A DNA stretch of 55,990 bases from positions 1 through 55,990 of the IMG/VR virus record IMGVR_UViG_3300045988_068752; one strand, given 5' to 3'. Below, in pieces: positions 27,934-40,242 of this stretch. The stretch is from a virus. Position 1 is the first letter of the stretch. The number at the start of each line of letters is the position of its first letter. The notes beneath the pieces are model-generated. The model was not told the origin of the DNA. It did no database searches and saw only the letters and a list, made by a program, of their open reading frames with translations. The translations under genes were made by a program, and so were the position numbers.

Positions 27934-30579
27934 CTAGACTAGGTTCTGTACAGTAGACACACTAACGCCTAAAGCTTCTGCTACTTCAGCGTACGTTCTA
28001 CCGTTCTTAAGCATACCTTTAGCTCTGTTAGCTGTAGATAGACTGATAGAGTCTTCCTTCTTAGGAGTAGCTAACTGCTTAAGCCTATCTGAGTCTGAGA
28101 AGCGTATGATGTCAGTAAGCATCTTAGTACTCACAGCACCAGACTGAATAGCTTTCCATTCATCAGGCTCAATAGTAATCCTAGAAGACGCTCCGTCAGC
28201 ACCAGTACGTACACGAGCAGCTGCAATAGCCTGTTGTTTAAGCTTCTTGAGCTGGTCTTTCTGCATGTCAGGGTCACGTTTCTCAGCAATTACCTTGTTT
28301 GCAATGAGCTGTGCTTGACGTTCTCTAGGAGAGTTGGCTAAAGCAAGGTTTAGTTTGTTCTGTAGAGACTCAACTTGAGACTTGTACTGTAGTTTAGCCT
28401 CTTTAGACATGGTCATGTTAGGTGTTGTACTAACAACAGTGTTAGCTTTATCACGCATCTTACCAAGAGCGTTGATATAATCGCCATACATATTTTCGAT
28501 AGGGGTGCCTGAACCAAGTGTCTTAGCATCTTTAACCATTTCTACAACATGGTCTGTAGCAATAGTTCTAGATTTCTTAATCGTTGGTTTAAGTTTAGGA
28601 TTAGCGGCTAGTTCTTCTGGTGTACGATGATGCTCCCAGTATTCCAATGTTCGATGTTCTGTCTTAGACCTTGAAATAAGAGTAGAAGCTCCACCTTCCA
28701 TTTTACCAGTAATAACATTATAGTGTTGTTGATATGCTTTACGTAATTCAGGAATACGATTCTCTCTTTCGGAACGTAAATAATCTAAATTATGTTTTTC
28801 TGCATCAATAACCACCATTGAATGTTTAACGGCTCTAGCAATTTCAGATTGACTAGCACCTTTAAGAGTCATGTCGGTAATAAGGTTTGATACTTCGCCC
28901 ATTTGACGTTGCTTCATGGTCCAATTACCTTTTGAGTCACGAGTCAATAACTGTTTATTATCAGAATAATACTGTTTAGTATCAAAGTTCTTAAGCTCTT
29001 TCAATGAACGACTAGTTGCAATTCCGTTTTTATTATTAGGAATAACCATTACAGTGTCGCCATCAAAATCAGCACCAGATAATTTAGAAGCAACAGATGA
29101 ATCAATACCAACTGCATCTTTAGCGCCCTTCATAAATTTAGCTGGACCTTTTTCAAGTTTATTATTAACTGTTAATTCTGGTAATTCAAAAATACCACCA
29201 TGAGGATATCGAACAAGAACTACTTTCTCTCCATTCTTAAAGTTAGGAGCATATATTTCGTTAGCTTTGATACCAGACAATGGCAAAATAACTTGACCTT
29301 TCATTCTATCGAAGCCAGTTAATTTAAGATTATGACGTTTTGTTGTCAAGCCATCAGCAAAATCTTGCATGAGTGCTTTCTTAATAACTGGGTTTGTCAA
29401 ATTATTAATTTCGTCAAACTCTTTTTGTAATTTTTCATACGTAGTTTGAATACGACCTTTAACAAGAGCAGGTGGTTGTTTAGAAACAAACTGAGAAGAT
29501 AAGGTCTTAGACCAAGTTCCCCAGTCTCCTTCTTCATTAACTTTATTTATAGCGCCTTTTTGTCCATTGGCTTTGATTTGAGCACCAAATGGATTATCAG
29601 GGTCATCTTTTAAAGGTTTAAGAACGTCTTCTTTAGGAGTTCCTTTTTTCTTGTTGGTATTGAAAATAACATCGACACCTTTAGGAAAATCTTTAGGGTC
29701 TCCATAAACAGCCATACCTTTAAGATAATGAGTTCCACCTACACCAATACGAACCTGAGCGTATCTAGAACCACCAAGGTCTAAATCTTTGACCCCTGGA
29801 CGAAGTTCCATAACTCCATCTTTATCGGTACCACCTTGCTCGTCGTATCGAATATTAACGCGTTTCCAATCAATATGTTGGATTGGTTTTAAACCTAATT
29901 TAGTTGAACCGTCTTCGGCTTTATATAGATTAGGAGGAGCGATTTCGTGTTTGTGTTCACGCACAACATCAGGATTAGGTTCTTTTGTAAGAACTTTCAT
30001 TTCTACCCAGTGATTGTCATTGGTAGCATTCTTAACATATACTTTATGCATATGATAACCTTCTGCTTCTAATTGTTGAACAGCACGTTTAAGAGTATTT
30101 TCTTTGATACCTAATTGTTGTGCTGAACCAAGACCTACGTCCAAATATGGATTCTCTTTAATAAGAGCTTTAAGGTCACTCTTAATATTTTCCATTCTTG
30201 TAATGTTGTTCTTAACTTGTTCATTAAGATACATACGAACAGACGACTCAGGAATACCAGTCCTACGAGATATCTCAGTTGGACCATGTCCTTTTTCGTT
30301 TAGTTCAATTACCATAGAATGATTTCTTAGACGAATGGTTTGGTTGGCAATTGTGTTACGAGCACGAAATTCACTTGTCGTGAGTCCTAGTTTTGTAGCG
30401 ATTTGAGTATCGCTTAAACCCGTCTTACGATATTTGGCGACAGTATCGGACCATGATGTAGCCCGTTGATAAGAATTCTCACCAGAACCCCACGCATATC
30501 GTCCACTGTGTGGGATATTCCCTTGGTGAGGAGTACCTTTATGCAGAATAATATCCTCATAAGCTTCTTCTAAATTCAT
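27934..30579 (-). CDS. YonO/RDR-like two-barrel single-chain RNA polymerase with N- and C-terminal HTH modules (881 aa)
   Basis: VVLVRYPHGGIFELPELTV...VASKLSGADFDGDTVMVIPNN (DFDGD encoded at 29056..29070) matches the beta-prime/RDR catalytic double-psi barrel. Upstream, FGAQIKANGQKGAINKV resembles the beta-type barrel. HTH-like segments lie at aa 54-71, aa 97-118 and the last 22 aa. Confidence 0.7.
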   Translation of the reverse strand: MNLEEAYEDIILHKGTPHQGNIPHSGRYAWGSGENSYQRATSWSDTVAKYRKTGLSDTQIATKLGLTTSEFRARNTIANQTIRLRNHSMVIELNEKGHGPTEISRRTGIPESSVRMYLNEQVKNNITRMENIKSDLKALIKENPYLDVGLGSAQQLGIKENTLKRAVQQLEAEGYHMHKVYVKNATNDNHWVEMKVLTKEPNPDVVREHKHEIAPPNLYKAEDGSTKLGLKPIQHIDWKRVNIRYDEQGGTDKDGVMELRPGVKDLDLGGSRYAQVRIGVGGTHYLKGMAVYGDPKDFPKGVDVIFNTNKKKGTPKEDVLKPLKDDPDNPFGAQIKANGQKGAINKVNEEGDWGTWSKTLSSQFVSKQPPALVKGRIQTTYEKLQKEFDEINNLTNPVIKKALMQDFADGLTTKRHNLKLTGFDRMKGQVILPLSGIKANEIYAPNFKNGEKVVLVRYPHGGIFELPELTVNNKLEKGPAKFMKGAKDAVGIDSSVASKLSGADFDGDTVMVIPNNKNGIATSRSLKELKNFDTKQYYSDNKQLLTRDSKGNWTMKQRQMGEVSNLITDMTLKGASQSEIARAVKHSMVVIDAEKHNLDYLRSERENRIPELRKAYQQHYNVITGKMEGGASTLISRSKTEHRTLEYWEHHRTPEELAANPKLKPTIKKSRTIATDHVVEMVKDAKTLGSGTPIENMYGDYINALGKMRDKANTVVSTTPNMTMSKEAKLQYKSQVESLQNKLNLALANSPRERQAQLIANKVIAEKRDPDMQKDQLKKLKQQAIAAARVRTGADGASSRITIEPDEWKAIQSGAVSTKMLTDIIRFSDSDRLKQLATPKKEDSISLSTANRAKGMLKNGRTYAEVAEALGVSVSTVQNLV

Positions 30580-30596: not shown

Positions 30597-31172
30597 CTAT
30601 CTAGGTTTGTTTTCTAAAATCCCAGAAAATTCTTTTATTGTATGATAAACATCATAGACATCTTCTGCTTCTGGAATAAATGTGTCAATGTTCTCGCCTT
30701 GATAAATACGAAGCTCAAAGTCCGTTTTCTCAGGAGCAACACCATATTCCAAACAGAAATATGCAGCGTAAACAAGCAATTGTTCCATTTTAGGTTTGGT
30801 AACGCCAGTCTTTAAATCATGTATCCGAAGAAATCCACGAGGATTATCTTTCTTAGGTGGGTCATAACGAATAGCATCAGCTGTACCAAATGCATATGGA
30901 GAGTAAAATAACAATACTTCGCTATCCATACGATATCCAATTGCGTCGTTAACAAAATTAGCAACTGCAGGATGAGTGTGACCAGGTAATAAACGAATTC
31001 TATGTTGAATTGCTTGACTGGCAAACTCATGAAGCTCAGTTCCACGTTGTTTAGCTTTTTCATTTTCAAAGCGCTCTACTAATTTTTCAGGATTGTATTT
31101 AAGCCAATGACATTGACTAGCACTCAAAAATGAATGTTTACCTTCGAATTCGGGATGTCTGTTCCATTTCAT
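30597..31172 (-). CDS. PD-(D/E)XK family nuclease (Cas4/RecB-like exonuclease)
   Basis: FGTADAIRYD ... LRIHDLKTG gives a D...D-x-K arrangement; replication-module context. Confidence 0.6.
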   Translation of the reverse strand: MKWNRHPEFEGKHSFLSASQCHWLKYNPEKLVERFENEKAKQRGTELHEFASQAIQHRIRLLPGHTHPAVANFVNDAIGYRMDSEVLLFYSPYAFGTADAIRYDPPKKDNPRGFLRIHDLKTGVTKPKMEQLLVYAAYFCLEYGVAPEKTDFELRIYQGENIDTFIPEAEDVYDVYHTIKEFSGILENKPR

Positions 31173-31443
31173 TGAGAACTTCCTCCTTATTCTCTGGATA
31201 TATAGTGCGAGCCCAACCTCCCATAGAATTATACTTGTCTAAGTAATATTCTTGATTAGGTCTGTACGGAGCATTAGCACTACGCTTAACTTCTAAATGA
31301 TAAGAATATGGACCGATGTCCACAGATAAATCTGGAATACCTTGAATGTGGCCAGAATCATTCTTCTTAACAATTGCATCAGGAAATCGTTGATGAATAT
31401 CCTGAATTAAGGCTCGTTGAAAATCTCTTTCAAGTTTGGACAT
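31138..31443 (-). CDS. VRR-NUC domain nuclease
   Basis: ERDFQRALIQDI...GIPDLSV...YHLEVKRS...YRPNQEYYL fits the VRR-NUC pattern. Confidence 0.7.
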   Translation of the reverse strand: MSKLERDFQRALIQDIHQRFPDAIVKKNDSGHIQGIPDLSVDIGPYSYHLEVKRSANAPYRPNQEYYLDKYNSMGGWARTIYPENKEEVLNEMEQTSRIRR

Positions 31444-32588
31444 TCTTTATCAATCCAGTTCCTTTCATTGAATTTCTTTTTACTACGAATTGAGCGTTCG
31501 ATAGCATCATCAATAGAAGCCGGGGATTTAAGATAAACGTAAAATAAATCATTAAAGGAGGTATTGACTCTGTTAATTCGTCCTTCTGATTGCTCCATCA
31601 CGCGATATGAATAATTCAGTGAATAAAACAGAATCGTATCAGTAGTTATGCAGTTCCATCCCTCGGCTCCGGCCGTGTACTGAACCAAATATACCCACTC
31701 AGCAGCATCGGGTATAGGTTCGTGTTTCTGACCGTTCCATTGATAATATGCCCTATTCAAATCTCGACAAATATCTTTCAATATGTCGAGCTCGTAGGTA
31801 TAATTATAAAAGACAATAATTCTTTCACGAGTCATGATTTGTTGTTTAGCATTTTCTATTCTACGTGGGCTTGTGTTAATTATCCTACGAAGAACTTGAG
31901 TAAATTCCGAAGCATTCATTATCGGAGTCTCAGTAAATGGATTAAACCTCGTATCAATAACTTGCTTATACAATTCTTTATCAAAAGCAGTATTAATATA
32001 TTGTCTATGAGTTTTGGTTGTTCGAAAATCAGCCATGGGCACAGCTAAATGACGTCTCAACCGTTCTAGTCTGTCCACCTCATGATATCGTTTAATCTGA
32101 GGGAACTTAGAATATGGATTGTATTCAACGTGTCTATCTACAAATTCAGTTTTGTTTCTGTAGAAATTGTTTGCTAAGAATATACACATCCAATCCATCC
32201 AAACATCTCCGGGTGTTGCTGTTAACATAATCCATTTGTTCTTACGAGCAATCTTAATGAAAGATGTACCCCATGAACCATATCCAATAGCTCGTTGCTC
32301 ATCAAATAAAAAGAAAGCATCTTTAACATCTAGATACTTTGTAATATTATTCCACGAGTCAACTGTCCCTTCAATGCCGAGCATTTCTAGGTCATGATGC
32401 CACTCTTTGTCATTACGCTTCTTAGCAACTGTAATAATATAAAGTGGTAAATCGCTATGGTTTTCCATATAATAAAATAGGCCGGTCAAGGATTTACCCG
32501 AACCGACCTTCCCGCACAATACAGAACCATTATGCAATCTATCAACCGCCCGCCGTTGATAGTCGTATAATTCAATTTTAGAAGCCAT
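31407..32588 (-). CDS. SF2 (DEAD/SNF2-like) helicase
   Basis: Walker A CGKVGSGKS, DExx-like LFDEQR, motif III-like LTATPG, and a C-terminal helicase lobe. Confidence 0.8.
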   Translation of the reverse strand: MASKIELYDYQRRAVDRLHNGSVLCGKVGSGKSLTGLFYYMENHSDLPLYIITVAKKRNDKEWHHDLEMLGIEGTVDSWNNITKYLDVKDAFFLFDEQRAIGYGSWGTSFIKIARKNKWIMLTATPGDVWMDWMCIFLANNFYRNKTEFVDRHVEYNPYSKFPQIKRYHEVDRLERLRRHLAVPMADFRTTKTHRQYINTAFDKELYKQVIDTRFNPFTETPIMNASEFTQVLRRIINTSPRRIENAKQQIMTRERIIVFYNYTYELDILKDICRDLNRAYYQWNGQKHEPIPDAAEWVYLVQYTAGAEGWNCITTDTILFYSLNYSYRVMEQSEGRINRVNTSFNDLFYVYLKSPASIDDAIERSIRSKKKFNERNWIDKECPNLKEIFNEP

Positions 32589-33117
32589 ACTTACGACGGA
32601 GTGGATTATCCACTACACGAATATAAGCATTCTTCAAGTTAAGACGAGCATACTGTCCATCTGGACTTGGGTCTCGTCGAGCGATAGTCATATCGCACAA
32701 TGCAATTTCCATATCGTCCAACATAGCTAACTGACTTTTGTCGTTCAAATACATACGGTCAGTTGGTACAATATCTTCATCGATAGGAGTTTCACCATTA
32801 TCATAAATAATAGCAATGCTTGGCAAACCGAATTGTGTATATACACGAACCTTGAAGAAATAAGACGGTCCAAACATGTCTGGATTCTCAGCCATCTTCT
32901 CCTCCATCTCATCAGTGATATTTTTAGGCTCATACAATTTAACGTTGACACCATATTGTTGTAGAAGTTCTACATCTTCTGGGTCTACCTTAACGTTAAA
33001 ATAACGGTCACCTGCGCGATTGTATTTTTCTTGACGCCCACTGAAGTTTCGAGCGAATAAGAATTCAACTTCTTCCAAAATAATTTGGGAGTTTGAAATT
33101 TGTGAAATTTTAGTCAT
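32578..33117 (-). CDS. Possible single-stranded DNA-binding protein
   Basis: 179-aa ORF between the polymerase and helicase genes. The context is typical for phage SSB-like proteins, but there is no diagnostic motif. Confidence 0.35.
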   Translation of the reverse strand: MTKISQISNSQIILEEVEFLFARNFSGRQEKYNRAGDRYFNVKVDPEDVELLQQYGVNVKLYEPKNITDEMEEKMAENPDMFGPSYFFKVRVYTQFGLPSIAIIYDNGETPIDEDIVPTDRMYLNDKSQLAMLDDMEIALCDMTIARRDPSPDGQYARLNLKNAYIRVVDNPLRRKYGF

Positions 33118-33264: not shown

Positions 33265-36200
33265 TCACGCGGTCTCAGGTTTTCTTACTTTGAGAGTTCC
33301 GTGATTGATAGAAATTGTTTGAGCATCAGGATATTTGTCTTGGAGCTCAAGAGCATCGACATAGTCCTTAGGCATGTTGTCAACGATTTGAGTAATATCC
33401 CCAACCTTGATAATTTTCTTAAGTCCATCGACTGCAATTTTATCGTAGTAAGAGAAATCAACATCTTCATAATCGAATTCGGAAGTTTGCTTAAATAAAT
33501 ATCCTTTTGTTCCTGCAATGGATTTGAAGTTTTCATTATCTTCAGTCCACATGCATTCTCTTCCTGACTTGGAAGCATAAATAGAACCGACCTTACCAAC
33601 GAATTCGTCGCCAAGATAAATATGACCCTTCGATTGTTTAGTGATAAAGAAATCTCTATCAACTAATTCTTCTTTGGTCCATACACGTTTGAGTAAATAT
33701 GTGTTAGCATACTCGGCTCCTGTTGGCGACCACTCATCATCTTCAAGCTGAGCAATGTACACAGCATTGTTAATAAGAGCCATACGTTTGTAAGTATGTT
33801 CGTGTTCGAACTTGTAGTTATATTTAGGTAATTTACCAAAGTCTTCAACGAACTTAATAATCTTTTCATCAGCATCTGGGATTTTAACAGAGTCGGTCTT
33901 AATATGACAGACCTTGTATCCTTGCTCTTCGATTGCAAATTTCAAGTCGACCATAAATAAAGCTCCACGTTTCGCAACGATGTTGTCAATATTGTCTGGG
34001 TGTTTGAACTTGTTATCGAATTTGGCAGAGGTCATTCCATATACTGAGTTGATTACAATCTTCAACGCTGTAACCAAAGGCTTACGATATTCTGGGTTGT
34101 CCAAGAATGGAACCAAGATACCATTAAACATTTGTTTAACTTCATCAACCTTATTATGCTTGAGTAATACACGAACTTTAAGTAAGTCTGCATATCTCTG
34201 AGTATATGGTCCGAAGTAGTTCATATTGATTAATGAATTCGGATGCATAGATTCTACGTCAAGCAAAGCGATATTTTTGTATACACCAGGTTCAGCATAC
34301 ACAAATCCACCTTCACCAGTTTCATAGCCACGGTAATATGACTTACCGAACTCATATTTGTATCCTGGGAAAATAGTATCAAGTTTAACATAATTAAATT
34401 TCTCTTGTGGATTAGGGTCGTCACCAAAGATAAATTTAGCAGTGAGCTGATTGTTAGTTGCATTCATCGAACCTTTTGAAATGGTTGCTAAGATTTCACG
34501 CGCAACGTAGTCAGCATATATAGCGTCGAATAATTTCTCAGTTGCATCAACGTCGTTAACACAGTAATCGACTACAACTGGAACTAACTCGTCAGGGACT
34601 GGTTGGTCCCAAGGAATTTCCATCTCGACGTGTTTAATTCCTAAGTCAACTTCCCAGCGCTTGAGTGACTGCTTCTTCTGAGAATACTCATAAATATCGG
34701 TATAGCTTAATTCATAAGCTGCCGCATACATTCCACTCTTCGCATTTTTTTCGTTGACGATTCTGTAGGACTGACGGAATAATTCTAAATTATCACATCC
34801 GAGTAATCGCGCATACAGAATATGATTATCGTATCGACGGTTGTTAAAACCGACTAGAGGAAATGAAAGAAGATGTTCGATTTGGTCTGGAGTTGGATTA
34901 ACCCATTTCACAAATTCGTCTTCTCCATATTTCTTCCACACAACAACAAACAGATTTGGATAGACCTCAATATCGAAGAATACTAATTCCTCTTTTGGAT
35001 ATATCTTGGTTCCACTTGTCAGCTTATCTTCCAGTGCTCCATTATCATCTCGAATAGACGACCATGGGATTTTCTGGAATACAGCCAAACAATATTCTCT
35101 GTTATTGGTTGAACGCAGAGCACGAAGAAATACATCATGCTTCAAATCAGTCAAGTCATATTCTAGACCCATGTCATATGCTTTCTGAATTTGGTCTGCA
35201 ATCCAATCGATTGTTGGTTTTGTATTTGGGTGACTTGGTTTCTCACCCTCAATAAGACCCAACTGTCTTTTTACAAATTTACGAAGAGTCTTCTCCGTGT
35301 ATGTAATTTCTTTTACGTCTTCGTACATCTTAACCTTTCTCTCTTTCAGCGGCAAGCCCGATGAAATATGAGATGGTTGAAGATTATTTGAGCCTTTATC
35401 AATTCGTCTCAGAGAGGCATTGCCTTTATATACTTTGATTTCAATATGCTCATCTACCAAATTATCTAACTCATTGACATTACCATCATAGATATAATGC
35501 AAATGAATTCCTTGTCCGGATTTAGACACCTCGGCATATGTTGGTGGGAACTTAGATGCGGCTTCGATATTTAAATCAAGGTTCTTCTCACCGTTCTCAT
35601 CTTTCAAATCGAAATCAATAACAATATGATTCAACGGAACTTTAACCCAATGTAATTTGTCCGTATGAATATCTTTTAAAGTTGTACGCACATCATCCCA
35701 TTTCATCATGGGATTTCCATTTCTTTGCGCTAGCTGTGCAGGATAATCTGCAGCAAGTCTATTAAATACTCTATTGTTGTAGTTGAACTTCAGCCAATTA
35801 TCAGGAACAATCATTTCATCAGGATTAGTTGTGCTGACAAGTCCTTCAGGAAATGCAACATTCCATCTAAATCCTTTGAAATAATTCTTAACGCGAGTAC
35901 CATCTATAGCGCTATCTTTGACCATGGTATCAAAATAACGCAGGGCTTCTCGTTTGATAACAGCTTTATAACCATCTGTCTTCCAACCCATTTCTTCCAA
36001 ATATTCTTTATACAGTTCTCCGAGTTGTCGAAGGCTAATTCCATCCTGCATATAAATTGCATTAGAACGAATAAAATCGAAGATATGGTCTGTTTGTTCG
36101 GCCATCTCAATATCGAAGTATTCATCGAAATAATCAAACCCTAATTCCTCAAAACGATTAATCGCTATATGAGCAATATAAGGCAACTCAAATTTTATTT

Positions 36201-37143
36201 GAGCCATCAATTGATTATATTTCGTATGACTAACTTTCTGTCCACTAGGATTTACAACAACGGCTCGTCGAGTAATACCCGAGTCAACGTTACGAACTTT
36301 ATAACGTTGGTTTGATGCTGTAATTAACAATCCATTAAAAATGACAGAATAAGGTTCCTTAAATTTCTTATTGACCTGAATAATTTCATGACTCGTCAAT
36401 TTCAATAACGGGGTATCGTTTTGAATATGACTGATATCAGTATCCTCATCAATTAACAATGGTACCTCTTGAACTTGTCCTGTTGCAAACTGGTCATTGC
36501 TTGTGAGCAGTTTCAAGTCAATAGGGGCACAGTAATCTTGGAATAACATTTTAAATATCTTTAGGACAGTTCCTTTACCGCTACCTTTCGAACCATACAA
36601 ATACATGAATTTTTCAATCTTATACATGTTGTTCGTTAATAATGCACCCATAAACCACAATATCTTATCGAGTTCTTGTGGCATATATAAAGTTCCAACC
36701 AATTCAGTAAAGGCGGGAGCTTCTCCTTCTGTTGGTGTATAATTTAATTGAGTAGTAGCATAGTCATGTCGCTTCATCTTGTGGTCAGAGAACAATATCT
36801 TTTGGTTGAAAGAAATATCGCCAGACTCACAAGCTTTACAGAAATCTTGAAATAGCCTGAACTTACCAACAGATGCTCTTCTAATTTCTTTTACATCAAT
36901 TCGTAACCCAGGTCTACCCTCTTCCAGTTCTTTAGCTCTACGCCAAAGTAAAGTGTCAATATCGTAAAATAAGTTCTTCTGTTGGGTATCCCAATAAGAA
37001 CCATTCCAATACGCATAGAATTTGGAGCCTTTAACAACTAAATCCTTAGTATCTCCGAAAATAAAATCTGGAGATACTTCATAATCTACCGTTCGGTTGT
37101 TTGATGTGAACTTTTTGATAGATACGTCTAAAAAATCCACCAA
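33265..37143 (-). CDS. Replicase fusion: SF3 (D5/P4-type) helicase + AEP primase-polymerase + family B DNA polymerase (1292 aa)
   Basis: Walker A GSKGSGKGT (36568..36594) with LLIDED. AEP motifs VIDFDLKD (DFD at 35608..35616) and SKSGQGIHLHY. PolB motifs: ExoI FFDIEV (34963..34980), ExoII GFNNRRYDNHIL, ExoIII YCVNDVDATEKLF, motif A LLDVESMHPNS, motif B KIVINSVYG, motif C HIKTDS (33889..33900). Confidence 0.85.
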   Translation of the reverse strand: MVDFLDVSIKKFTSNNRTVDYEVSPDFIFGDTKDLVVKGSKFYAYWNGSYWDTQQKNLFYDIDTLLWRRAKELEEGRPGLRIDVKEIRRASVGKFRLFQDFCKACESGDISFNQKILFSDHKMKRHDYATTQLNYTPTEGEAPAFTELVGTLYMPQELDKILWFMGALLTNNMYKIEKFMYLYGSKGSGKGTVLKIFKMLFQDYCAPIDLKLLTSNDQFATGQVQEVPLLIDEDTDISHIQNDTPLLKLTSHEIIQVNKKFKEPYSVIFNGLLITASNQRYKVRNVDSGITRRAVVVNPSGQKVSHTKYNQLMAQIKFELPYIAHIAINRFEELGFDYFDEYFDIEMAEQTDHIFDFIRSNAIYMQDGISLRQLGELYKEYLEEMGWKTDGYKAVIKREALRYFDTMVKDSAIDGTRVKNYFKGFRWNVAFPEGLVSTTNPDEMIVPDNWLKFNYNNRVFNRLAADYPAQLAQRNGNPMMKWDDVRTTLKDIHTDKLHWVKVPLNHIVIDFDLKDENGEKNLDLNIEAASKFPPTYAEVSKSGQGIHLHYIYDGNVNELDNLVDEHIEIKVYKGNASLRRIDKGSNNLQPSHISSGLPLKERKVKMYEDVKEITYTEKTLRKFVKRQLGLIEGEKPSHPNTKPTIDWIADQIQKAYDMGLEYDLTDLKHDVFLRALRSTNNREYCLAVFQKIPWSSIRDDNGALEDKLTSGTKIYPKEELVFFDIEVYPNLFVVVWKKYGEDEFVKWVNPTPDQIEHLLSFPLVGFNNRRYDNHILYARLLGCDNLELFRQSYRIVNEKNAKSGMYAAAYELSYTDIYEYSQKKQSLKRWEVDLGIKHVEMEIPWDQPVPDELVPVVVDYCVNDVDATEKLFDAIYADYVAREILATISKGSMNATNNQLTAKFIFGDDPNPQEKFNYVKLDTIFPGYKYEFGKSYYRGYETGEGGFVYAEPGVYKNIALLDVESMHPNSLINMNYFGPYTQRYADLLKVRVLLKHNKVDEVKQMFNGILVPFLDNPEYRKPLVTALKIVINSVYGMTSAKFDNKFKHPDNIDNIVAKRGALFMVDLKFAIEEQGYKVCHIKTDSVKIPDADEKIIKFVEDFGKLPKYNYKFEHEHTYKRMALINNAVYIAQLEDDEWSPTGAEYANTYLLKRVWTKEELVDRDFFITKQSKGHIYLGDEFVGKVGSIYASKSGRECMWTEDNENFKSIAGTKGYLFKQTSEFDYEDVDFSYYDKIAVDGLKKIIKVGDITQIVDNMPKDYVDALELQDKYPDAQTISINHGTLKVRKPETA

Positions 37144-37479
37144 TATACCTCCATTTCTACTATCACCCTTTTTTACCCCATTTTGGCCCTATCTCCCATT
37201 GTATATATATACTAGTTCATTTTCAACTCATCCCAGTATACAATAGGAAAAGGGGCCGTTTTTGGGGGAGAAATAGGGGATTTTAATAAAATTTTCACCT
37301 TTTTCTCATTTTTTTACATCAATATTATAGGTCACCTAGAAATACCCCAAATTTCCTCAGATTTTTTGGGGGATAGTTTTAAGCCAAAATTAGCCATTTT
37401 TGACCAATTTTCCTACAATATCAATGCAAATTCCTACAGTCACCCGAAGTTTTTCTGGGCATTTTCCATAGAAATATAC
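37144..37479. other. 336-bp non-coding region upstream of the replicase gene (candidate origin and/or regulatory hub)
   Basis: No ORF. It holds repeated C4-5/G4-5 tracts, direct repeats TTTTTGGGGGA (37259.. and 37364..), the AT palindrome gtatatatatac (37201..37212) and a sigma-A-like TTTGGG-16-TATAAT on the minus strand. Confidence 0.6.
37408..37439 (-). promoter_or_regulatory. Degenerate possible 11th copy of the promoter-like motif
   Basis: Minus strand: TGTAG GAATTTGCATTGA TATTGT AGGAAA. The 13-nt spacing is the same, but both anchor elements are mutated. Confidence 0.3.
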
Positions 37480-37731
37480 CTATTTAGAACGTTTAATCCA
37501 TCGTAATTCCACCCGATTCACCAAAGAATTATCCGTTTGATAGCTGTTTGCGACCCTTGCAAGGTACTCAAAACCATCAATTTTCACCCGGACAATCTCC
37601 CCATATAAGGTAGATAATATAGGATTTCGAGACAATACAAGCTTCCAGCCAGTTATAATCCCGTCCACATCTTTAATATACTTTGCGTCAAACGCGTCTA
37701 GCACTACTGGTGAATTTGTATTTTTCTTCAT
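37480..37731 (-). CDS. Hypothetical protein (83 aa)
   Basis: ORF directly downstream of the endolysin. Confidence 0.6.
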   Translation of the reverse strand: MKKNTNSPVVLDAFDAKYIKDVDGIITGWKLVLSRNPILSTLYGEIVRVKIDGFEYLARVANSYQTDNSLVNRVELRWIKRSK

Positions 37732-37736
37732 AATTA

Positions 37737-38663
37737 TTACTTAGCGTCCTTTTCTTTAGGAGGTTCTTGTGTAGTAAGAGGCTCGGTGGTAATAAATCCA
37801 TCTGGTTCAACCTTGAATGCTGGTTGTTTGTCAAGCTTACCATCCGGAAGAAGTTTGTACCAACCATCATTATATTTAATGAATTGGTCGGACTTCATAT
37901 CGCCATCTTTAGGATCTAGGTAGTACCAGTTGTCGAAGTATTTAACCCAACCGGTCTTCATCGCTCCGTCTTTGTCGAAGTAGTACCATTTACCACCAAT
38001 CTTGACCCAAGACGTAGCCATATAACCTTTGGCGTTAAACCAATACCACTTACCATCAGTATGTTTCAACCAGCGGTCAGTGTATGCATATCCATCTTTG
38101 TCGAAGTAGAACCATGATTTATTTTCTGCAACGTATTCGAATCGGTTTGTTGGGTATGACCCGTTTTGACGTACATACCACCAACCAGTGTTATTTTTCT
38201 TCCAACCTGGTTCAACTGGCTTAGCGGTACCAGCTCCTGTGAGACGATATACGTAGTAATATGGCTTACCAGCATATACCCAGCGTTCGTCGTGGTCGTT
38301 TACTGAGATACCATTATATGCCCAGTTACAGTGGATGATATTATCGCTATCAACAAAGATACCAGTGTGGCCTCCAGCACCTGCTGACTGCCCTTTACGT
38401 CCCCAGATGAAGATATCGCCACGTTGAGCATCCCAAGGTGTGTTCTCGGCAATAAGCTCGAAGCCGTTGTCAAGCAACCATTGGTGTTGGTATTCAGTGT
38501 TTACTGCCCAACCAGCAGATACGGCTCCGCCTGAGCGTAGTGCGTAATAAATAGATGATGAACAGTCGTATGAGTCAGGCCCATCACGGTGCTCCATACT
38601 GTAATATACTTGTCCTTCACGGTTTTTCATCCAAGCAAGTGCTGTTTCTAAATTAATTGTCAT
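37737..38663 (-). CDS. Endolysin: Amidase_5/CHAP-like N-terminal domain + choline-binding-type (YG/CW_binding_1) repeats
   Basis: The N-terminus [63 protein letters not shown] resembles streptococcal/lactococcal phage lysins. The C-terminus has repeats such as [56 protein letters not shown] at 38663 follows AGGAGA. Confidence 0.9.
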
Positions 38664-38868
38664 TTTGTTTCTCCTGTCTTGTAAATATTTTGTATTTGTA
38701 ATGTTCAGTTGGGAAATGATGTTTAACGCCATTTGACTCAACTATAATAAATTCTTGTGGATTCATAGCATGCATACTAATATAAACATCCACAACGTCG
38801 TAATATAAAGATTCGTTTAGGTTGCGTTTATCTTGCACAACCACAATTTGTTTACTATCTAAAATCAT
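38653..38868 (-). CDS. Hypothetical protein (71 aa)
   Basis: ORF upstream of the endolysin; no TM segment, so not an obvious holin. Confidence 0.55.
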
Positions 38869-38873
38869 CTTAG

Positions 38874-39980
38874 TTACCCCTTATCATCACTTCGATAGTC
38901 CTTATCAATTATTGGATGGAAGAGCCATAAGATTGCCTTGAACATTTTCTCATTAAGCGGCTCTTTTTCTTCTTTGTCTTCTTTTTGTGGCTTGAAAGTA
39001 AGGTTCTCAGTCTTAGTTTCTTCCGTCGGAATATGGAACTTTTTGGACCGAAATTCAGACTCTTCTTCACCCCCGGGATTTTTGTCGGTTTGGGAATAAA
39101 TTTCAGTGGCTACGCCTTCTTTAATCAATTGCTTTTCATCAGGCATCAACTCACGAAAAGTATCTACATAATTAGAAAATCCATCGAAAGATAACCATGG
39201 CGTAATAATAATGAGACATGCTATTTTTTTATAAACCATATTGCGGTCGTGTGCTTGACGTAATTTGTTATCTAAATCGTTCGCAGGACTACGTTGATCT
39301 AAAACGTTTTGAACTAGTAAATTCATGACACTATTAATTTCTTTAGAGAAAAGACGAATTTCTACATCCTGTTTAACTGTAATACTATTAGCATTACTTT
39401 CCATAGATTCCATGAATTGTTCTTTAAACTTTTCCAATTCTTTATCAATTTGAGAATCTAATTCTTCAGCGACACCCTCAATAATTAATTGACGTTCGTA
39501 GCTATGCAAATATGAAATGATTTCTTCATTAATTCTTTTACGAACAATCGGGTCATTCATCATATCCTCAGCAGCATATCGCATTGAGTCAACAGCAGAG
39601 TCATCAGGATTTTCTTTCTTAGGCTTTTTGAAAGTCATATATGGTTCATCTTGACCGAACACATATACATGACCAACCTCTTCTTCCTCCCCATCTTCAG
39701 CTCGAACACCCTTCAACCAGCATGCAGTCATCGCAGCGTAGTTAGATAGGTCTTCTAAGGTGTCTAGGAGGCTCTCAGAGCCCACCTGCTGCGTTCTAGA
39801 GTCGTCCGTGAGTGCTTCTAAGCGGTTCATTTTGTCGCCCATACGGACGATGCTAGCCACGATTCCGTGCTTGTCCAAAGACTCCTCAAATGAGTTACCA
39901 TAGTCGCTATTTTTCTTACAAAATGTCTTGTATTGTCCGTCGTACTGCTCACGCATTGTGTTGTTATTTACTTTTGTCAT
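38874..39980 (-). CDS. DUF1599/MazG-like (all-alpha NTP pyrophosphohydrolase-like) N-terminal domain fused to a long C-terminal region with an internal duplication
   Basis: YKTFCKKNSDYGNSFEESLDKHGIVASIVRMGDKMNRLEAL...DTLEDLSNYAAM fits the DUF1599 pattern. The later segments ERQLIIEGVAEELDSQIDKE and EKQLIKEGVATEIYSQTDKN are repeats. Confidence 0.5.
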   Translation of the reverse strand: MTKVNNNTMREQYDGQYKTFCKKNSDYGNSFEESLDKHGIVASIVRMGDKMNRLEALTDDSRTQQVGSESLLDTLEDLSNYAAMTACWLKGVRAEDGEEEEVGHVYVFGQDEPYMTFKKPKKENPDDSAVDSMRYAAEDMMNDPIVRKRINEEIISYLHSYERQLIIEGVAEELDSQIDKELEKFKEQFMESMESNANSITVKQDVEIRLFSKEINSVMNLLVQNVLDQRSPANDLDNKLRQAHDRNMVYKKIACLIIITPWLSFDGFSNYVDTFRELMPDEKQLIKEGVATEIYSQTDKNPGGEEESEFRSKKFHIPTEETKTENLTFKPQKEDKEEKEPLNEKMFKAILWLFHPIIDKDYRSDDKG

Positions 39981-40242
39981 TTTCTTCCCCTTCAAAGTGT
40001 TCTTCTACGCTAACATTTTTCATAGTCTTAAACAAATGCTCTTTTTCAGCTTTCGAATATTTAAAGATATCAATCTTCTTAATTCGACTTGGGTCAATAG
40101 GTATGATTACTTGACTAGGTGTCCCAGGCATAGTAAGTAAATACGAAATTAAGACATATGTGTCACGTACTTCAACATTAGTTACTACATCATAACGGTC
40201 AAAATCTTTACCGTTAGTATGCTCAATATAAACACATTTCAT
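39964..40242 (-). CDS. Small hypothetical protein (92 aa), member of a tandem small-paralog group
   Basis: The segment IIPIDPSRIKKIDIFKYSKAEKE resembles segments in the ORFs starting at 40503 and 41245. Confidence 0.55.
   Translation of the reverse strand: MKCVYIEHTNGKDFDRYDVVTNVEVRDTYVLISYLLTMPGTPSQVIIPIDPSRIKKIDIFKYSKAEKEHLFKTMKNVSVEEHFEGEENDKSK

Follow-up and report, generated by a model that had tools for sequence, protein, structure and literature searches.

Gp55 of Lactococcus phage 1706 is the characterised relative of the gene considered here, which we term the replicase gene and which lies at positions 33265 to 37143 of a viral sequence of 55,990 nucleotides (nt) (IMG/VR record IMGVR_UViG_3300045988_068752; this whole stretch is referred to as the window). 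Kazlauskas et al. (2016; NAR 44:4551, PMC4889955) identified gp55 as a fusion of an SF3 helicase, an AEP primase and a DNA polymerase of family B (PolB), one of the two cases known, from phages of Lactococcus and Rhodococcus, in which helicase, primase and polymerase are combined in a single polypeptide. The protein, GP55, has since been purified and assayed as a single chain of 1317 amino acids (aa) by Zhang et al. (2025; NAR gkaf542, PMC12205980), who described it as a 'four-in-one replicase'. Its DNA polymerase activity is abolished by the mutation D949A, its 3'-5' exonuclease by D712A/E714A and its RNA primase by D509A; its helicase, which depends on UTP or dTTP and confers strand displacement, is abolished by K189A (PMC12205980). 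Initiation of primers with GTP is preferred, at sites such as 5'-CCAAC-3', and the resulting primers are 2-22 nt long. Priming also needs a new alpha-helix domain (aHD) located between the AEP and PolB domains, and is lost when Y655 or F667 of that domain is mutated (PMC12205980). The enzyme is dimeric, its primase and polymerase cooperate in trans, and it completes de novo replication of ssM13; more than 1000 homologues, mainly from human-associated phages, were reported (PMC12205980). Our literature searches found no further paper on the helicase-AEP-PolB architecture besides these two.

The gene in the window is very probably a replicase of the same 'four-in-one' type, orthologous to phage 1706 gp55. 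The plus strand translation of this region is riddled with stop codons, and the gene must therefore lie on the minus strand; the earlier note on this locus, made from the sequence alone, had named no strand. The list of open reading frames (ORFs) and their translations gives a single unbroken frame of 1292 codons, in which residues are numbered here from the TTG at 37143. That note had proposed three replication enzymes in one 1292 aa polypeptide, and all three domain assignments are supported; every motif it quoted is present, colinear as described and at about the residue numbers given (Table 1). A BLASTP alignment with GP55 (YP_001828703) scores 1129 bits, with 45% identity over aa 2-1249, the two proteins being colinear end to end over about 1290 aa and sharing the order N-terminal domain, SF3 helicase, AEP, aHD, PolB exonuclease and polymerase. 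The whole architecture constitutes one PHROG family, phrog_4210 ('DNA polymerase'), which matches the replicase along its full length (aa 2-1261 against profile positions 1-1292 of 1304, 1453 bits), and sub-regions of the protein also match PHROG primase-helicase and polymerase families. More than 100 database proteins, each of 1291-1292 aa, share 84-92% identity with it. A survey of phage databases, as proposed in the earlier note, found the same architecture in 252 deposited phage genomes representing several bacterial phyla, each having a colinear homologue that spans at least 80% of the query and is usually annotated as 'DNA primase/polymerase'. The intact frame, the four modules, the homology of each to its family and the conservation of all the catalytic residues are what the present analysis shows.

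Conservation was assessed in a family alignment of 12 sequences, from phages of Firmicutes and Actinobacteria, and in a second alignment of 19 close homologues. Six of the seven residues that were mutated to kill an activity of GP55 are conserved in the replicase. K189 of the GP55 helicase corresponds to K190; the acidic AEP pair D507/D509, the second of which was the residue mutated, to D510/D512; the exonuclease residues D712/E714 to D724/E726; the polymerase residue D949 to D962; and Y655 of the aHD to Y662, which every one of the 19 close homologues retains, as do 11 of the 12 family sequences aligned. The exception is F667, discussed below. The two proteins also differ through insertions. 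GP55 alone has around 45 aa inserted in the C-terminal region of PolB (gp55 aa ~1202-1245); as these are absent from the replicase and from the 10 other aligned members, it is the reference enzyme that is atypical in this region. Unlike GP55, the clade to which the replicase belongs has a 5 aa insertion (GLIEG) in the first loop of the aHD and its own C-terminal tail of around 30 aa, with which the polymerase subdomain ends.

The helicase assignment, given as D5/P4-type by the earlier note, rests on several searches. When the whole protein was compared with Pfam at default thresholds, the P-loop domain was the only one found, as DUF5906 at aa 182-293 (E 4.5e-12), with AEP and PolB undetected; DUF5906 was recovered in all 12 family members, some of which also match Pox_D5 and PPV_E1_C. 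Since the replicase exceeds the 1200 aa limit for structure prediction, it was modelled as two halves, comprising aa 1-705 and aa 690-1292. Foldseek matched the N-terminal half to D5-type helicases, namely African swine fever virus (ASFV) PrimPol, the NrS-1 C-terminal region, monkeypox virus (MPXV) E5 and vaccinia D5, with E values of ~2e-8 and a probability of 1.0. Residues G187, G189 and K190 of Walker A, D234 and D236 of Walker B, the sensor-1 residue N278 and the arginine fingers R292 and R293 are invariant in both alignments. The helicase core is preceded by a domain that is conserved across the family, modelled as beta strands that lead into a long helix and with D3, F4, P25, D34, G39, W46, W51 and D63 invariant in the 12-sequence alignment; the equivalent part of GP55 is counted within its 'helicase domain' (PMC12205980). 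It is followed by a helical region and beta-hairpin that, by analogy with the C-terminal winged-helix domain of D5-family helicases (PMC4889955), may represent the winged-helix-like C-terminal module of such enzymes.

The primase is the weakest of the three assignments, and was therefore tested separately, using the AEP segment (aa 455-600) isolated from 11 family members. Four phage primase PHROGs were matched in their N-terminal AEP region by every one of the 11 segments, the lowest E value being 6e-6. In hhalign comparisons, the segment aligned with gp74 of Salmonella phage 9NA, an NrS-1-like primase carrying the NrS-1 HBD Pfam domain, at Prob 84% and E 7.5e-6; this proved a better comparator than two Streptococcus phage Prim-Pol proteins, with which the E value was 0.004 and motifs I, II and III were in register. 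The motifs are invariant in the family, these being D510 and D512 (motif I), S540, K541, G543, G545, H547 and H549 (motif II) and E568 and K570 (motif III), as are R579 and R580. They sit on predicted beta strands of the N-terminal model (E506-511, E546-552 and E567-571), as expected of an AEP core. The dominance of helicase matches in the Foldseek results for this half meant that no separate result was obtained for the AEP fold. The helicase and primase assignments of the earlier note are both supported by these searches.

The order of these modules is also as first described, with helicase, primase and polymerase following one another. This inverted arrangement is real and has been noted before, as 94% of primase-helicase fusions have the primase at the N-terminus (PMC4889955). 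What the earlier note overlooked is a fourth module, the aHD, lying between AEP and PolB and needed by GP55 for priming. The segment spanning aa 617-690 is well modelled and contains four helices (H617-627, H641-657, H665-676 and H682-690). Not one of the 12 family members gave a Pfam match to PriCT_1 or to the NrS1 HBD, whereas these domains are seen in control phage primases; the result is consistent with the published interpretation, in which the unrelated aHD substitutes for the accessory domain (PMC12205980).

The C-terminal half (pLDDT 78) matched, by Foldseek, the archaeal PolB enzymes 9N, KOD and Tgo, E. coli Pol II and human Pol alpha, with E values down to 7e-18. A profile of the family compared with the PDB likewise retrieved E. 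coli Pol II at 1.1e-7, with no match to an AEP or SF3 structure, and the replicase sequence on its own gave only marginal Pol II matches in the PDB (E 0.006). Pfam DNA_pol_B was detected below threshold in just three of the 12 family members, hence the domain is a divergent one. The motif set is nonetheless complete, as the earlier note had it, and all six motifs are invariant: D724 and E726 in ExoI; N768, Y771 and D772 in ExoII; Y860, N863 and D864 in ExoIII; D962 in motif A; K1028, N1032, Y1035 and G1036 in motif B; and K1082, T1083, D1084 and S1085 in motif C. The single-chain helicase-primase-polymerase replisome core envisaged from these motifs agrees with what has been shown biochemically for GP55, which is 45% identical (PMC12205980).

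On the analogy with GP55, the N-terminal D5-type helicase would unwind the duplex and provide strand displacement, driven in GP55 by UTP or dTTP. The AEP domain and the aHD together would synthesise short RNA primers de novo on a single-stranded DNA (ssDNA) template, starting from GTP, if GP55 is a guide, at sites of loose specificity such as 5'-CCAAC-3'; the small aHD would here take the place of the usual PriL/HBD accessory module. PolB would then take up the primers, whether in cis or in trans, extend them with deoxynucleotides and proofread the product through its 3'-5' exonuclease. Were the replicase a dimer like GP55, one subunit may prime as the other extends.

Some observations weigh against such a close equivalence. 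Identity with the characterised enzyme is only 45%, and it is from this enzyme that the four activities, the nucleotide preference, the primer specificity and the oligomeric state ascribed to the replicase would be carried over. The model of the N-terminal half is of moderate quality (pLDDT 70, pTM 0.42), and its P-loop core (aa 204-270) is poorly modelled. On profile scores, the case for the AEP domain is weak to moderate: the Pfam Prim-Pol matches, seen in nine of the 11 segments, fall below the gathering threshold, and the hhalign comparison with the Streptococcus phage Prim-Pol proteins had a probability of only 8%. Finally, F667 of GP55 aligns without gaps with R674 of the replicase, a phenylalanine, F672, lying two residues upstream. 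This position is R or K in 11 of the 19 close homologues, which form the replicase's clade, and F in the rest; the local sequence is V-F-[LM]-R-A in this clade and x-L-x-F-A elsewhere. The aromatic residue thus appears to have shifted by two positions, and F672 may compensate for the loss of F at the original site. Given this displacement, the arginine in its place and the 5 aa loop insertion, it can be proposed, though we consider it rather unlikely, that the oral streptococcal clade has remodelled its primase accessory domain, such that the template specificity or the initiating nucleotide may differ from those of GP55; on this reading the replicase might also cooperate at the origin with the putative YonO-like RNA polymerase of the phage.

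A more radical interpretation of the same substitution is that primase function has been lost in this clade, with the polymerase and helicase still working and the AEP/aHD module degenerated into a linker or a DNA-binding region; replication would then be primed by transcripts of a putative YonO-like RNA polymerase, or initiated in a recombination-dependent manner through the adjacent SSAP and exonuclease. The residue replaced by R674 is essential for priming by GP55, and both a candidate phage double-psi-beta-barrel RNA polymerase and a recombination module are indeed encoded just downstream. However, D510, D512, H547, H549, E568, R579 and R580 are invariant across phages of Firmicutes and Actinobacteria, and the aHD tyrosine Y662 is conserved as described above, which is the pattern expected of purifying selection on an active site; the F to R change may be compensated by F672; and GP55 primes even though these recombination genes also lie downstream in phage 1706 (PMC12205980). 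We therefore regard loss of the primase as improbable. Still less credible, although no search of the window for a terminal-protein gene was made, is a scheme resembling that of phi29, in which a terminal protein would prime a linear genome and the AEP domain would be irrelevant. The authors of the GP55 study did align its PolB motifs with those of the phi29 polymerase, and observed strand displacement and very long products (PMC12205980); however, that displacement is largely dependent on the helicase domain and GP55 extends its own RNA primers (PMC12205980), whilst the nearest structures to the replicase PolB, those of archaeal PolB enzymes, E. coli Pol II and human Pol alpha, are of polymerases primed by RNA or DNA.

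There is next to no likelihood that the fusion itself results from misassembly, a frameshift or mis-joined genes, with helicase-primase and polymerase in reality being separate proteins. The sole weak point of the gene in this respect is its non-ATG start, which nevertheless has a good ribosome-binding site. The same unbroken architecture, at the same length, recurs in the more than 100 independent metagenomic proteins and in the 252 phage genomes, with no sign of the missed stop or frameshift that the earlier note had considered, and GP55 was handled as one protein throughout its purification and assay (PMC12205980). As uninterrupted fusions of near-identical length are this widespread, the fused ORF is no artefact of sequencing or of a frameshift.

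More distant members of the family share the arrangement. Full-length, colinear homologues are the 'DNA primase/polymerase' proteins of actinobacteriophages (among them those of Arthrobacter phage KeaneyLin gp60, Gordonia phage Gravy gp61, Streptomyces phage RosaAsantewaa gp39 and Rhodococcus phage ReqiPoco6) and the 'helicase/polymerase' of Faecalibacterium phage FP_oengus, all of which have 37-42% identity to the replicase, contain the same invariant motifs and also belong to phrog_4210. They differ in coming from other hosts and high-GC genomes and in retaining Phe at the position of GP55 F667, and some have an insertion of around 23 aa before AEP motif I. Literature searches found no biochemical study of these homologues. 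The canonical AEP-SF3 primase-helicases, such as vaccinia D5 and MPXV E5, ASFV C962R PrimPol, the NrS-1 polymerase and 9NA gp74, have the same D5-like SF3 domain and, as in the replicase, an NrS-1-like AEP catalytic domain. In the replicase, by contrast, the order is inverted, with the helicase ahead of the AEP domain; an unrelated aHD stands in place of an HBD or PriCT domain, neither of which was detected; and a full PolB is appended. GP55, moreover, is dimeric and not hexameric (PMC12205980). The only other reported single chain to combine helicase, primase and polymerase is Pas55 of Actinoplanes phage phiAsp2, composed of an SF3 helicase, a DnaG primase and PolA (PMC4889955). As compared through its published description, Pas55 differs from the replicase in having a DnaG-type primase and a family A polymerase, hence the two kinds of fusion arose independently.

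The combination of unwinding, priming, extension and proofreading in a single polypeptide gives about as compact a replisome as is known, and makes enzymes of the GP55 type attractive as tools for primer-free isothermal amplification. This significance belongs to the GP55 family, already described and characterised: the architecture has been published, studied biochemically in a homologue, catalogued among the PHROGs and is routinely annotated. The replicase is a further, moderately divergent member of this family, from a probable oral Streptococcus phage, with the clade-specific change at a critical aHD position as its only distinctive feature. Such a natural substitution could aid structure-function work on aHD-supported priming.

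The gene ends in a stop codon at 33265-33267, and its earliest in-frame start is the TTG at 37143. The spacing of the upstream GGAGG sequence fits the GTG at 37140 better, and homologues begin with 'MDF...', which in both the BLASTP alignment with GP55 and the family alignment starts at the codon immediately following the TTG; on these grounds the true start is probably the GTG, giving a protein of 1291 aa. Upstream is an intergenic stretch of 337 nt (37144..37480) containing a sigma-70-like promoter candidate, which is a pattern match only, the region overall having no clear enrichment over shuffled sequences. An imperfect 21 nt inverted repeat (37185-37205 and 37237-37257) straddles this candidate, and two exact copies of TTTTTGGGGGA are found 104 nt apart within the same stretch. 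From its sequence, this intergenic stretch could be a candidate regulatory or origin region.

Table 1. Positions of the replicase gene, its modules and motifs, and other features of the window.
Feature	Nucleotides	Strand	Residues (aa)	Basis or remark
Replicase gene	33265..37143	-		1292 codons from TTG 37143; phrog_4210 full-length match; 45% identity with GP55
Shine-Dalgarno GGAGG	37148..37152	-		Read directly in sequence; 4 nt before TTG 37143, 7 nt before GTG 37140
Sigma-70-like promoter candidate TTGAAA-17-TACAAT	37198..37226	-		Upstream of replicase gene; consensus scan, 10/12 matches
N-terminal beta-rich domain	36769..37143	-	1-125	Conserved across family; model: beta strands, then long helix
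D5/P4-type SF3 helicase P-loop domain	36124..36756	-	~130-340	Pfam, PHROGs, Foldseek, invariant residues
Walker A LYGSKGSGKGT			182-192	
Walker B LLIDED			229-234	
ASNQ...RR segment			276-293	
Helical region and beta-hairpin, between helicase core and AEP	35782..36123	-	~341-454	Model secondary structure
AEP primase catalytic domain (PriS-like, NrS-1-type)	35344..35781	-	~455-600	PHROGs, sub-threshold Pfam, hhalign, GP55 D509A
AEP motif VIDFDLKD			508-515	
AEP motif SKSGQGIHLHY			540-550	
Alpha-helix domain (aHD)	35029..35343	-	~601-705	Model helices, GP55 alignment, published aHD role
PolB 3'-5' exonuclease subdomain	34444..35001	-	~715-900	Invariant columns, phrog_1252, Foldseek, GP55 D712A/E714A
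ExoI FFDIEV			722-727	
ExoII GFNNRRYDNHIL			765-776	
ExoIII YCVNDVDATEKLF			860-872	
PolB polymerase subdomain	33268..34443	-	~901-1292	PDB profile, Foldseek, invariant columns, GP55 D949A
Motif A LLDVESMHPNS			960-970	
Motif B KIVINSVYG			1028-1036	
Motif C HIKTDS			1080-1085	
SSAP / ssDNA-binding protein	32578-33117	-		Downstream of replicase
SF2 helicase	31407-32588	-		Downstream of replicase
Small endonuclease	31138-31443	-		Downstream of replicase
Exonuclease	30597-31172	-		Downstream of replicase; phrog_3953, weak DUF2800 match
881 aa protein	27934..30579	-		phrog_4291 ('RNA-dependent RNA polymerase'), full-length match, 1009 bits; next after exonuclease
Endolysin	37737..38741	-		Upstream of replicase; Amidase_5 catalytic domain and choline-binding repeats
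373 aa protein	38874..39995	-		N-terminal DUF1599 ('nucleotide modification associated domain 1', E 7e-6), phrog_1485
Long ORF, 2325 aa	9097..16074	-		Presumably structural (tail) region
Long ORF, 1525 aa	3750..8327	-		Presumably structural (tail) region

The closest deposited genome is that of Caudovirus D_HF5_2C, from human saliva, in which the replicase gene has 79% nucleotide and 84% amino acid identity and its product is annotated as 'DNA polymerase/primase'. The choline-binding repeats of the endolysin encoded upstream suggest a host whose teichoic acids contain choline, for instance a member of the Streptococcus mitis/oralis/pneumoniae group, which fits the origin of this closest relative. 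Hence the window probably derives from a 1706-like phage of an oral, choline-containing Streptococcus, rather than of Lactococcus as in the case of GP55. The order of the genes in the recombination and repair module immediately downstream of the replicase gene (30597..33117) is that of gp66-69 in phage 1706, although the 10 or so small ORFs that separate gp55 from these genes in phage 1706 are absent here.

Beyond the exonuclease gene lies the CDS for the 881 aa protein, which has a weak Pfam RdRP match and helix-turn-helix motifs at both ends, and carries SGADFDGDTVMV, whose ADFDGD is the DxDGD motif that binds metal in double-psi-beta-barrel RNA polymerases. The protein is thus a probable single-subunit phage RNA polymerase of the YonO type; in the closest GenBank relative it is labelled 'putative transcription factor D5'. 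The protein of 373 aa that contains a DUF1599 domain may, judging from this match, be involved in DNA or nucleotide modification.

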